From Escherichia coli (lineage in GTDB: Bacteria > Pseudomonadota > Gammaproteobacteria > Enterobacterales > Enterobacteriaceae), in NCBI RefSeq assembly GCF_044647545.1, contig NZ_CP172818.1: a stretch of DNA of 64,000 nucleotides, one strand, 5' to 3'. Below, piece by piece: positions 53,428 through 56,564 of this stretch. How positions within the stretch are numbered: the first letter of the stretch is position 1; each line of letters begins with the position of its first letter. The notes under the pieces were generated by a model. The model saw only the letters and a program-made list of their open reading frames with translations, did not search any database and was not told where the DNA came from. The translations under genes were made by a program, and so were the position numbers.

Positions 53428-53889
53428 TTAAACAATAAGCTGCATAACCCAGATCGACAGCAATGCGTTAATCACGCAGACCGTAATGATATGCGGGTAA
53501 TATTTGGCATTCACTTCGGCTGTCCCCAGGCAGCGACCGACATTTTGCACCGGGTTGCCCATTAAATACATCGCGGGCAGTAAAACGGTGACATCGTGAC
53601 CGGTTAATGCGCCAGCGGTTGCCAGACTGGCGGCAACACCGACTGCGCCGCCCATACTCATTAATGCGGCTAAAAGGACGGTTGCCGCTTCACCGGGTAA
53701 TCCCCACAGCGCCATTACGGGTTCACAGATATGCCCCACCCAGTCGAGCAGGCCGGTAATTTTCAGCGCCTGAATGATGACAAACGCCATCACCACGTTT
53801 GGCAGCAGGTTGGTCGTGGCGATAGTAAAGCCACGGCGCGCACCATCGATAAACATATCCATGACGTTTTTGCGGACCTGAGTTGTCAT
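53428..53889 (-). CDS. yjiG: inner-membrane protein (SpmB/nucleoside-recognition-like)
   Basis: 153-aa hydrophobic product MTTQVRKNVMDMFIDGARRGFTIATTNLLPNVVMAFVIIQALKITGLLDWV... Confidence 0.85.
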   Translation of the reverse strand: MTTQVRKNVMDMFIDGARRGFTIATTNLLPNVVMAFVIIQALKITGLLDWVGHICEPVMALWGLPGEAATVLLAALMSMGGAVGVAASLATAGALTGHDVTVLLPAMYLMGNPVQNVGRCLGTAEVNAKYYPHIITVCVINALLSIWVMQLIV

Positions 53890-54569
53890 GCTTGCGCTCC
53901 TTGCGTTGGGTTGCGACGTTCTTCGAAGTTAAGCCAGACGCGCAAAATGTTGGCTCCGACAAATTTAAACACCAGGATGACTGCTAAAGGTACGATTACG
54001 GACGTGCCCAGAAAGGCAAACACCGCGACGCCGGAAGAGAAGTAGTTGGTGATAATGGCGCTACCACTGGTTTGATATGCGGCGAAAATCACTTTATCGC
54101 GTTCGGTAATTTCACCTTCCTGCGCCAGCTCTTTGGTCATACCTGCGGCGGCATCGGTGTTTTGCAGGTTAGCGATCAGCGCCAGCGAGCAGATCCCTGG
54201 AATGCCCAACAACGGTTTTAGCACTGGCGTCATTAACTGCTGCGCGGCGCGTAATCCGCCAAGACCATCGGTAATTGAAATAATCCCCAGAGAGAGAATG
54301 ACTGACGGTGCCAGCTCCAGCGCAAAGAGAAAGCCATCTTTAGCCCCCGCGCCACCCGCGCCGCGAAACGAGGTGGTGGCTCCGTTCGCACCAGGCAGTT
54401 GCCCAAACGATCCGTTCAGAACGGAAAAATCAAAAACGCGCCACCAACTGTCTGTCCCGGAAAAAACACCGGAAAAAAAGATTATGGTGAGAAAAAAAGC
54501 CAGATACCCTTTAATGCCCACTTTTTCTGTCGCCAGCTCCCCGGCTACAGCATCCCCTTGTTGTGTCAT
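53886..54569 (-). CDS. yjiH: inner-membrane protein
   Basis: Product MTQQGDAVAGELATEKVGIKGYLAFFLTIIFFSGVFSG...; 4-bp overlap with yjiG; ORF track start at 54581 trimmed by 4 codons. Confidence 0.8.
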   Translation of the reverse strand: MTQQGDAVAGELATEKVGIKGYLAFFLTIIFFSGVFSGTDSWWRVFDFSVLNGSFGQLPGANGATTSFRGAGGAGAKDGFLFALELAPSVILSLGIISITDGLGGLRAAQQLMTPVLKPLLGIPGICSLALIANLQNTDAAAGMTKELAQEGEITERDKVIFAAYQTSGSAIITNYFSSGVAVFAFLGTSVIVPLAVILVFKFVGANILRVWLNFEERRNPTQGAQA

Positions 54570-54818
54570 AACAATCCCCATTGTTTTTTTGTGTTTGTGT
54601 GTTGCTTGAGCCAGGAAAATTCCTGGAGCTGAAAAACCTTATCAGCCATGTGGGTATGGGGAAAATGCAAGTATGTTTCTGACTATGCGTTTTTTGCATA
54701 GCGGTAAAATTACGCTGTGTGGAAAAGGTTCTACGCAGGATTGAGTTGCAGAAAATTCATAAACCCAGTGACAATGACATAGTAAATAAAAAACAGATAA
54801 TCCAGGGACGAAAACGCG

Positions 54819-55373
54819 ATGGCAAAGTACAACGAAAAAGAGCTGGCGGATACGAGCAAGTTTTTAAGTTTTGTCCTCCGACACAAACCGGAGGCGATTG
54901 GTATCGTACTGGACCGTGAAGGATGGGCGGATATCGATAAGCTCATACTTTGTGCCCAAAAAGCGGGCAAGCGGTTAACCCGTGCATTGCGGGATACTGT
55001 GGTTGCCACCAGCGATAAAAAGCGTTTTAGTTATTCCAGTGATGGTAGGTGCATCCGCGCGGTTCAGGGGCATTCGACTTCGCAGGTCGCTATTTCCTTT
55101 GCCGAAAAAACACCGCCACAGTTTCTCTACCACGGTACGGCAAGCCGTTTCCTTGACGAGATAAAAAAACAGGGGCTGATTGCAGGTGAGCGTCACTACG
55201 TACATCTCTCTGCTGATGAAGCAACGGCACGCAAAGTGGGAGCAAGACACGGATCGCCGGTTATTTTAACCGTCAAAGCACAGGAAATGGCGAAACGAGG
55301 CCTCCCTTTCTGGCAAGCGGAAAACGGGGTCTGGCTGACATCAACGGTTGCGGTTGAGTTTCTTGAGTGGTAA
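54819..55373 (+). CDS. kptA: RNA 2'-phosphotransferase (Tpt1/KptA family)
   Basis: 184-aa product [43 protein letters not shown]... (Tpt1 family). Confidence 0.9.
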
Positions 55374-55385
55374 GGGAAACTTCCC

Positions 55386-56564
55386 TCATGAAGTGACCAC
55401 TTGTAGCTTAAATAATTGCACTGTGCTGATAAGCGCAGCAATAAACAACGCCGCCGCGCCGCAGAGAGTGGCGCTGGCAAGCGCCGATGTTCCATTGCCG
55501 AGCATACTGGTCAGCGCCGGGCCGAGGATTTGCCCAATGCCGTAAATGAGCGTCACAAAGCCTAAAAGATTGAGATTTCCCGGTACGCTCAGTTGGCGGG
55601 CGATAGTCATCACCAGAGATGTCGTGCCCATAAAGGTACCGCCAAAACCAAGACTGCTGATGATAAGCAAGAGAGGCGAGTCGCTGGCGAGAGTAAGCAG
55701 CACACAGATAGCCTGCACCAGCAAATTCGCCGTCAGGCAGGGCAAAGCCCCCCAACGTTTTGCTGCCCATAGCCAGCCAAAGCAACCAGGCACAATTGAT
55801 AAGCCGACTAACGTCCAGAGATGGGCGGTTAACAATGGTGAGCCTGCATCTTTCGCCATGAGCGGCAGGTAAGTCGCGACGATGATATAACCAAATCCCG
55901 CCAGGCCGTACAGAATAGCCAGTAACCACCAGCTCATTATCTGTTGCTCCGTTTTTGCCAATGGCATTGGTGTGATGGCGTGTTTTTTCGAGGGCATTAA
56001 AAGCGTAAGTGCAATCAGCATCATGCCAGAAAGCGCCCCGGCGCCTTGCCATAACGTTTGCGAGGAGAGGTCAAAATGCAGGCCTGCCAGAACATATTCA
56101 TTGCCCAGTGCGATGCCAATGCCAACGCCAGAAAACAAAGCTGCCAGCACAAAAGGATGGCGCGTGTGCTGCATAATCAGCGTCGAACCAAAAATCAGCA
56201 TACCGGCGCTGGCGACACCCGCCAGGACGCGAATCAATAACACCAGAATAAATGGCGGCAACCATGCCATTGCGAGGATCAACAACCCGCTCGCCAGGGC
56301 AGAAGCCAACAGAAATGGGCGCAGGCGCGATGGCTGGTGAAATGCGCCAAAAGAAAATAGCAGACTGCCAGCCAGATACCCCGCATAGTTGCCGCTGGCA
56401 ATCCACGAGAGCTGGCTAAATGAAAACGATCCTTCCGCCATCATGACGGGCAACATAGGCGTATAAAGGAAGCGGCCTAAACCCATACCTAAGGTCAGAA
56501 CCAGCATCCCGAAAAGCGCGGTGCTGAAAGAAAAGCGTTCTACGGGATGCGTGGACGAAGGCAT
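55386..56564 (-). CDS. yjiJ: MFS transporter
   Basis: 392-aa polytopic product [45 protein letters not shown]... Confidence 0.85.

Follow-up and report, generated by a model that had tools for sequence, protein, structure and literature searches.

The orphan kptA gene of Escherichia coli and the linkage of its relatives to a family of polymorphic toxins with a predicted ParB/sulfiredoxin fold

Background

Tpt1/KptA enzymes are NAD+-dependent RNA 2'-phosphotransferases, and the kptA gene considered here lies in a 64,000-nucleotide stretch of Escherichia coli DNA (RefSeq assembly GCF_044647545.1, contig NZ_CP172818.1), referred to below as the window. Why this enzyme of tRNA splicing is retained in E. 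coli, and in many further bacteria, without the pathway that makes its substrate has been a puzzle since 1998. In vitro, E. coli KptA carries out the Tpt1 reaction, and it also complements tpt1-delta in yeast (PMC6097658). It erases 2'-phosphouridine-47 of tRNA in E. coli cells expressing the archaeal kinase ArkI, in which the m7G46 and acp3U47 modifications are reported to block the 2'-phosphorylation of U47 by ArkI (PMC9095486). E. coli was among the organisms without Up47 in the comparative screen of the same work (PMC9095486). No route to internal RNA 2'-phosphates is known in E. coli, and the role of Tpt1 in such taxa has been called obscure (PMC6097658, PMC6573784). Alternatives raised in the literature are ADP-ribosyl capping of 5'-phosphates, removal of terminal 2'- or 3'-phosphates and action on non-RNA substrates. 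The gene contexts given for Tpt1/KptA in reviews include Thg1, sirtuins, macrodomains and phage RNA-repair genes. Tags of the 2''-OMe-NAD+ Tpt1-poison type are available for RNA 2'-phosphates (PMC12621583).

Precedents for enzymatic immunity come from systems in which a covalent mark left by a toxin is undone. Tri1 does this for the modification by Tre1, and DarG for that by DarT. The DarT/DarG pair is also mentioned in PMC9967889.

Identity of the gene

The gene was delimited as follows.

54819–55373, + strand: kptA coding sequence, NAD+-dependent RNA 2'-phosphotransferase of the Tpt1/KptA family, 184 aa plus stop, ATG start (PF01885, NF002012, RefSeq)

This is the E. coli kptA gene known since 1998, and RefSeq annotates the identical stretch as kptA; that the window gene has both the identity and the chemistry of E. 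coli KptA is close to certain. The product matched Pfam PF01885 (PTS_2-RNA) with E = 7.1e-46 and 156.9 bits (cut-off 26), in a full-length alignment that placed residues 10–175 of KptA on profile positions 4–176 of 177. The NCBIfam equivalog NF002012 was matched at 424 bits (cut-off 233) over positions 1–184 of 184. Sequence matches to solved structures were obtained with Tpt1 structure 7kw8 (E = 2.5e-43, residues 10–182) and with 6e3a/6ede, the Tpt1 of C. thermocellum (E ~8e-33, residues 11–182). The catalytic tetrad Arg21-His22-Arg69-Arg125 is intact in the window KptA, and the Arg-His-Arg-Arg tetrad is invariant across an alignment of 18 homologues; R21, H22, R69 and R125 are essential in E. 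coli KptA according to Sawaya 2005, as that work is cited in PMC6097658. Judged from the sequence, the profile, the tetrad and the relationship to known structures over both lobes all point to membership of the Tpt1/KptA family.

The locus thus encodes a stand-alone functional Tpt1-family enzyme, its activity being taken from the published work on E. coli KptA. An earlier note on this DNA, made from the letters alone, had called the product a Tpt1/KptA RNA 2'-phosphotransferase, which the PF01885, NF002012, Tpt1-structure and RefSeq matches bear out, and had left its native substrate open, as is also acknowledged in PMC6097658, PMC6573784 and PMC9095486. That interpretation was broadly right and is partly supported; it describes an old puzzle rather than a discovery. 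The window gene alone adds nothing new, as kptA and its missing substrate were already known.

Neighbourhoods of kptA in related bacteria

Homologues closest to KptA beyond E. coli are ~55–74% identical and scattered over Budviciaceae, Superficieibacter, Erwinia, Xenorhabdus, Pseudomonas and Betaproteobacteria, with a patchy distribution in Enterobacterales; the KptA tree is incongruent with taxonomy, which indicates horizontal movement. One 84%-identical KptA from an "Escherichia sp." was considered as an intermediate orthologue and rejected: its source, L006 (GCA_047233685.1), is an indel-ridden metagenome-assembled genome (MAG) of E. coli, with many 1–2 bp indels in every gene of the contig and ~93–99% nucleotide identity to E. 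coli, as is typical of an unpolished long-read assembly.

Neighbourhoods were surveyed at 80 proteobacterial genome loci with KptA 55–67% identical to that of the window, with genes called and neighbours clustered. The only large recurrent neighbour families formed a pair, consisting of a protein of 117–157 aa and the C-terminal end of a large protein. The gene for the small protein, which belongs to an SMI1/KNR4 (SUKH)-like immunity family, is directly convergent with kptA, and the gene for the large protein, a toxin, lies beyond it on the same strand as the small one. Searches with hidden Markov models (HMMs) placed the immunity family against kptA in 20 of the 80 loci and the toxin domain in 20, with both present in 19. 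The gap between kptA and the immunity gene is mostly −22 to +25 bp, and the two stop codons often share TTAA. Five further loci carry toxin subtypes B and C next to kptA with other immunity proteins; these subtypes are probably related to the main toxin family, although the hhalign comparison of subtype B with that family gave a motif-level match only (E = 7.6e-4, probability 25%). Altogether kptA adjoins a polymorphic-toxin immunity gene in 25 of 80 loci, and 23 of the 73 loci with sufficient downstream sequence are linked, in 16 of 38 genera. Unrelated toxins lie by kptA in two other loci, and Kosakonia has a CdiI_4 immunity gene that is an orphan.

In a neighbour-joining tree without support values, KptAs with and without the toxin linkage are interleaved, and the E. 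coli/Superficieibacter branch falls inside a radiation that contains both kinds.

Two side observations were made in the same survey. Single Gilliamella genomes (L014/L019, L016/L048, L020/L025) hold two kptA copies, one in a toxin cassette and one stand-alone, and the stand-alone KptAs in L029 and L048 are truncated at the N-terminus and lack Arg21-His22. In the Pseudomonas fluorescens group, kptA is directly convergent with trmB (tRNA m7G46 methyltransferase, PF02390) in L017, L052 and L073, and trmB stands one open reading frame (ORF) further away in L023; this adjacency may be a coincidence.

Reverse search from the toxin domain

The linkage was also approached from the other side. With the toxin domain as query, 6 of 6 look-ups among diverse matches gave the order toxin, immunity gene, PF01885 gene; over all 10 look-ups of this kind, the triad was found in 6. 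In the triads of Vibrio ruber, Pseudomonas orientalis and an ENA MAG, kptA is convergent. Those of Enterococcus, Bacillus pseudomycoides and Listeria welshimeri are LXG (type VII) loci with all three genes co-directional; in the Firmicute triads the immunity ORF shares 8 bp with the kptA ORF, and the KptA has 61% identity to C. thermocellum Tpt1, an enzyme with known biochemistry.

Metagenome contigs scanned with the toxin alignment yielded 80 loci, 71 of which continue downstream for 1 kb or more past the toxin domain. In 43 of these 71, kptA comes right after the immunity gene (30 convergent, 13 co-directional); after dereplication by toxin identity, kptA is present in 26 of the 30 clusters formed at 80% and in 33 of the 39 formed at 95%. 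The linkage of toxin, immunity gene and KptA is thus strong, reciprocal and cross-phylum, and it is not obligatory.

The Vibrio ruber locus L087 was noted separately. Its KptA (5784–6260) is internally deleted, to 158 aa, and lacks the segment around Arg125, and its toxin is a stand-alone domain of 138 aa; the locus looks like a decaying orphan cassette.

Fold and family of the linked toxin

The toxin domain is always C-terminal and belongs to a family of 1442 clusters at 50% identity. The same domain is found on PAAR, RHS, haemagglutinin/DUF637/PT-VENN, PT-HINT and LXG delivery scaffolds. Examples are those of Pseudomonas (L061 8950–9370, − strand), Hafnia (L071) and Listeria (L092 5001–5468). 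An abundant human-gut RHS lineage (L141–L165, e.g. L142 1367–4697) has the same ParB/Srx-like C-terminal domain and an immunity gene, followed by orphan RHS fragments.

Searches of Pfam and NCBIfam gave no family for the toxin domain (one sub-threshold RepB match), and the PDB held no sequence relative. The AlphaFold 2 model had a predicted local distance difference test score (pLDDT) of 93 and a predicted template modelling score (pTM) of 0.84, and from this model the domain can be assigned with confidence to the ParB/sulfiredoxin (ParB/Srx) fold; a Foldseek comparison agreed with the assignment. Of these searches for relatives, the comparison of folds alone was informative. The fold is that of three known phosphotransferases, sulfiredoxin, SerK and SbnI, which depend on ATP or ADP. 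Sulfiredoxin and SerK are also noted in the report on the toxin ToxB (bioRxiv 10.64898/2026.05.05.722872). The domain carries a near-invariant Ser in the motif RFSQ and an invariant DNTR, and a relative from Neisseria gonorrhoeae is 50% identical to it. It fits the Tox-ParBL1 class of Zhang et al. 2012 (PMC3482391), on account of the RFSQ Ser, the DNTR motif, the SUKH immunity and the gonococcal relative.

Proposed role of KptA

The mechanism proposed is as follows. An incoming polymorphic toxin would act as a nucleoside triphosphate-dependent kinase and phosphorylate 2'-OH groups of RNA. The SUKH-like immunity protein would bind, and so block, the toxin that the cell itself makes, and KptA, with NAD+, would erase those RNA 2'-phosphates that are made anyway or that are made by non-cognate toxin variants. 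In numerous Proteobacteria and Firmicutes, toxin domain, immunity gene and kptA make up one compact module fused to PAAR, Rhs, CdiA/haemagglutinin or LXG scaffolds. E. coli would keep the eraser alone, as an orphan broad-spectrum enzymatic immunity gene against the toxins of competitors. From the ArkI/KptA pair it is clear that a 2'-phosphate installed by a kinase is a good in vivo substrate of E. coli KptA.

That KptA erases RNA 2'-phosphates made by the toxin, whose kinase activity is predicted, is offered as a tentative reading, plausible and somewhat short of probable. Held with greater reserve, as a possible account, is the broader statement that bacterial Tpt1/KptA, the E. coli copy included, serves mainly as an antidote to ParB/Srx-fold (Tox-ParBL1-type) toxins that kill by phosphorylating RNA 2'-OH groups, for example in tRNA, and that are delivered by type V, type VI and type VII secretion systems (T5SS, T6SS, T7SS).

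A number of observations weigh against both statements. The kinase activity of the toxin family is a prediction only, and ToxB, the only ParB-fold toxin studied, was reported as an ATPase with pleiotropic effects rather than as an RNA kinase and is toxic in kptA+ E. coli (bioRxiv 10.64898/2026.05.05.722872). Linkage is not universal: the human-gut RHS lineage (23 contigs) has no kptA nearby, nor have N. gonorrhoeae, a Streptococcus plasmid and two divergent family members, and about two thirds of the surveyed KptA homologues stand in other neighbourhoods. Proteobacterial kptA is usually convergent with the cassette, and because of this orientation it is not co-transcribed with it. Within E. 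coli, kptA is frameshifted, and hence dispensable, in some lineages, and there is no toxin or immunity remnant adjacent to it.

The standing of the window gene with respect to the triad follows from the same survey. Its KptA is homologous to the triad KptAs (55–67% identity) and interleaved with them in the tree. By HMM search, neither the window nor the E. coli loci L001, L096 and L097 have a SUKH-like immunity gene next to the 3' end of kptA, where the convergent neighbour is yjiJ or, in some strains, iatD; and no ParB/Srx-fold toxin domain lies within ~1 kb of kptA in the window or in E. coli loci. The window gene is therefore not a triad member, adjacency having been tested and not found, and the proposed role is extended to E. 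coli by homology alone, because no cassette remnant lies beside kptA.

In the literature searched, no paper ties KptA/Tpt1 to ParB-type or other polymorphic toxins, LXG or immunity genes, and an earlier description may nevertheless exist; the triad and its kinase/eraser interpretation are new relative to that literature, with priority left unsettled. Should the proposal be correct, bacterial Tpt1 would have a physiological role, RNA 2'-phosphorylation would be a weapon in bacterial competition, and a new kind of orphan enzymatic cross-immunity would have come to light. The triad would then be the first natural source of KptA substrate in bacteria and its toxin the first RNA 2'-kinase toxin. 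The triad of the relatives is a specific lead with strong support, and it makes the old kptA question directly testable.

The kptA locus of E. coli

The gene order in E. coli is hypT, iadA, yjiG and yjiH on the − strand, kptA on the + strand, and yjiJ, yjiK, ytiA, yjiL, yjiM, yjiN and mdtM on the − strand. The features around kptA in the window are given below.

53886–54581, − strand: yjiH, divergent upstream neighbour, Gate-domain membrane protein and first gene of yjiH-yjiG-iadA (longest ORF, TTG start; RefSeq start at 54569)
54582–54818, no strand: divergent intergenic region between yjiH and kptA, which from the geometry must contain both promoters
54774–54801, + strand: candidate sigma-70-like kptA promoter (ATGACA, 16-nt spacer, GATAAT; 10 of 12 matches), a prediction only
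55374–55385, no strand: 12-bp spacer separating the kptA and yjiJ stop codons (convergent genes), from ORF geometry; site of iatD in some strains, and the position taken by the immunity gene in toxin-linked relatives
55386–56564, − strand: yjiJ, convergent downstream neighbour, MFS_4 transporter (ORF and Pfam)

Divergent from yjiH and convergent with yjiJ, kptA is monocistronic as judged from the geometry. The distance from yjiH is 237 bp when measured from its longest ORF and 249 bp from its RefSeq start. Pfam places a Gate/nucleoside-recognition domain in YjiH and YjiG and MFS_4 in YjiJ; yjiH and yjiJ are context only, without a functional link to kptA. The promoter scan gave two sigma-70-like sites, against 1.3 expected in shuffled sequences, which is no significant excess. 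The terminator scan found no + strand terminator 3' of kptA, and the Rfam scan of the entire window found no family near kptA or in the yjiH-kptA intergenic region.

Toxin and immunity HMMs built from the relatives' families had zero matches in the window and none in the E. coli loci L001, L096 and L097, and a blastn search of 5426 E. coli genomes with a Hafnia cassette, sensitive to ~65–70% DNA identity, gave no match. Among the 25 listed of 79 Pfam families matched by the other 45 large ORFs of the window, there were no RNA ligase, RNA-repair, kinase or toxin families. The remaining content of the window comprises sugar-acid catabolism, ferric citrate transport, insertion sequence (IS) elements and a leuX-associated island. 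In E. coli, kptA does not lie beside a ligase, Pnkp, Hen1, RtcB or 2H gene, as it would in an RNA-repair operon of the Runella kind.

The earlier note had described kptA as standing alone between membrane-protein genes, and the Gate domain of YjiH, the MFS_4 domain of YjiJ and the gene geometry agree with this. Its statement that there is no obvious substrate-generating partner holds in cis in E. coli; the family has a strong candidate partner in trans. By its own account, the reading would be overturned if kptA of close relatives consistently lay beside an RNA ligase or a repair operon. None of the recurrent neighbour families at the 80 loci is an RNA ligase or an end-healing enzyme, and the kptA genes of Superficieibacter and Erwinia persicina lie in unrelated neighbourhoods without RNA-repair genes. 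The sole RNA-repair-type linkage is in Xenorhabdus, where an RlaP-family nucleotidyltransferase gene (PF10127, "RNA repair pathway", E = 6e-96) lies 23–24 bp upstream of kptA on the same strand (L039 7155–7952; L085). The neighbourhood comparison recommended in the note turned up no repair operon, and the neighbourhoods were not empty: roughly between a quarter and a third of the closest homologues are toxin-linked.

Elsewhere in the window, tRNA-Leu(CAA) (1512–1596, + strand) is followed by a truncated P4-type integrase ORF (1783–2268), a group II intron D1-D4 fragment that lacks an intact reverse-transcriptase ORF (Rfam RF02003; 3388–3527, − strand; 66 bits), and an IS4 transposase (4300–5643, − strand). 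The region 1512–5643 has the look of a decayed island beside a tRNA gene; the tRNA and the intron fragment, ~50 kb from kptA, are the only Rfam matches in the window. The kptA region is 100% identical to that of strain WP4-S18-ESBL-09, but the left part of the window is K-12-like, and a match of the entire window to one annotated strain was therefore rejected in favour of annotating its own ORFs.

Presence and variation of kptA across E. coli

By megablast of 54600–55400, the kptA region was found in 5390 of 5426 complete E. coli genomes (99.3%), in single copy and annotated kptA. The ratio of nonsynonymous to synonymous divergence (dN/dS) of kptA was 0.06–0.16 against three other strains, with similar values for its neighbours, and kptA is under purifying selection in E. 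coli. Frameshifts by independent 1-bp deletions are present in strain 112 (L097 6175–6770, nt 198) and in the blood isolate MS20654 (L181 3220–3773, nt 344), and clusters of a truncated KptA protein of 119 aa have ~300 members, which suggests that whole E. coli lineages carry a kptA pseudogene. The gene is thus generally kept, as the low dN/dS indicates, yet dispensable in some lineages, as the frameshifts in sampled strains indicate.

Diversifying selection was considered for 597 genomes at 90–95% identity and ruled out, the divergence being mostly synonymous (dN/dS 0.10). This class represents an imported divergent haplotype block over yjiG-yjiH-kptA. In MS20654 (L181 1829–3773 compared with window 53428–55373), synonymous divergence (dS) is 0.15–0.26 over yjiG-yjiH-kptA, 0.03 in yjiJ and yjiK and 0.07 in iadA, which suggests a recombination import ending at the kptA/yjiJ junction. 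In strains AR_0077 (L096 6925–12165) and 112 (L097 6927–12169), iatD, a 5.2-kb inverse autotransporter gene, is placed exactly between kptA and yjiJ, and the KptA of these iatD-bearing strains has 194 aa and an altered C-terminal end.

These data bear on the explanation that kptA in E. coli has no current selective role and is a leftover of evolution, acquired horizontally and then kept by drift. A passage in PMC6333775 calls Tpt1 inessential in exemplary bacterial taxa, and the independent frameshifts, the 119-aa clusters, the patchy distribution in Enterobacterales and the incongruent tree fit such a history. Near-universal presence in E. coli, a dN/dS comparable to that of the neighbours and the intact catalytic residues of the window allele do not, and the explanation is accordingly judged unlikely.

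Alternative explanations

A second alternative, quite unlikely in our estimate, is housekeeping healing of RNA ends, in which KptA would remove terminal 2'-phosphates after a 2H phosphoesterase has opened 2',3'-cyclic ends, and the ends would be re-ligated or re-used. Cyclic ends of this type are produced by metal-independent RNases, and the 2H enzyme of E. coli is ThpR/LigT, encoded elsewhere. The KptA-2H route is set out in reviews from the Aravind laboratory (PMC9503650), some Tpt1s, such as that of C. thermocellum, remove terminal 2'- and 3'-phosphates (PMC6573784), and the position of the Xenorhabdus RlaP gene would suit a repair function. The Tpt1s of Runella and human, however, lack terminal phosphatase activity (PMC6573784), and linkage of kptA to a 2H, ligase or RtcB gene was seen neither in E. 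coli nor at the other 80 loci. Healing of ends would also leave the linkage to ParB-like toxins unexplained.

Under a third alternative KptA would be an ADP-ribosyltransferase that caps 5'-monophosphate RNA or DNA ends for regulation or protection, and removal of 2'-phosphates would not be its native activity. Bacterial, archaeal and human Tpt1s do ADP-ribosylate 5'-phosphate ends in vitro, and the same has been reported for E. coli KptA (PMC6182162, PMC6582358, PMC8120803), but the relevance of this activity is acknowledged to be unclear and it may be promiscuous (PMC11833690). No macrodomain or ADP-ribosylhydrolase (ARH) eraser gene is linked to E. coli kptA, and capping leaves unexplained why kptA travels with a kinase-fold toxin; we regard it as very unlikely.

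The toxin linkage could also be real with KptA acting on or with the toxin, for example by ADP-ribosylating a phospho-Ser intermediate, or with kptA serving as a downstream homology arm for cassette exchange. The near-invariant Ser of RFSQ would offer a site for the former, and kptA always stands at the 3' edge of the cassette, and between successive toxin cassettes in L016, L061 and L064, as the latter would have it. Against these, linkage extends across phyla, different KptA lineages and both orientations, action of Tpt1 on phosphoproteins is not known, and the Arg-His-Arg-Arg tetrad is retained in all 25 linked KptAs, which argues for selection on enzyme activity; both variants together appear distinctly improbable. 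Least credible is a non-RNA substrate, a 2'-phosphate or other phosphomonoester on a small molecule, for example a metabolite derived from NADP(H) or ADP-ribose: NADP(H)-derived ligands occur in Tpt1 structures and such substrates have repeatedly been proposed (PMC12678800, PMC6097658), but E. coli KptA complements yeast tpt1-delta and is efficient on 2'-phosphate RNA in vitro and in vivo, and no metabolic genes are consistently linked to kptA.

Comparison with known systems

Among the described Tpt1/KptA enzymes (yeast, E. coli, Runella, C. thermocellum), the window gene is E. coli KptA itself, with the same domain, length, tetrad and RefSeq locus. It differs from fungal Tpt1 in that the E. 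coli genome lacks a ligase that generates 2'-phosphates, and from Runella Tpt1 in that E. coli kptA lies outside any RNA-repair cluster.

The ToxB domain of CdiA (bioRxiv 10.64898/2026.05.05.722872) resembles the KptA-linked toxins in being a ParB-fold domain at the C-terminus of a contact-dependent inhibition (CDI) toxin, with a small immunity gene downstream. It belongs to the classical PF02195 family and is reported as an ATPase that causes nucleoid collapse, whereas the KptA-linked domain has no Pfam match; neither Tpt1 nor phosphotransferase occurs in the ToxB paper (bioRxiv 10.64898/2026.05.05.722872). The Tre1/Tri1 and DarT/DarG pairs share the proposed logic, in which an enzyme undoes the covalent mark of a toxin and can cover non-cognate variants. 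In those pairs the reversing enzyme is itself the immunity protein or antitoxin; here there is a separate immunity protein of the binding type, and KptA would be a third component, often convergent.

The ArkI/KptA pair of thermophilic archaea (PMC9095486) is alike in that a kinase installs an internal RNA 2'-phosphate, at U47 of tRNA, which KptA erases. The fold of ArkI is protein-kinase-like, and its mark is stabilising and of benefit to the cell, whereas the KptA partner put forward here is a delivered toxin of ParB/Srx fold with an activity that is predicted only.

Closest to the toxin side of the triad are the Tox-ParBL1 cassettes of Zhang et al. 2012 (PMC3482391), which share the ParB fold, the N-terminal Ser, the [NT][RT][RT] motif (DNTR here), immunity of the SUKH type, RHS, haemagglutinin or LXG scaffolds and a member in Neisseria gonorrhoeae. 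The E. coli locus differs from them in having neither toxin nor immunity gene. Zhang et al. 2012 proposed a nuclease and made no mention of KptA; the third gene of the cassette, and its reading as the eraser of a kinase, are new here.

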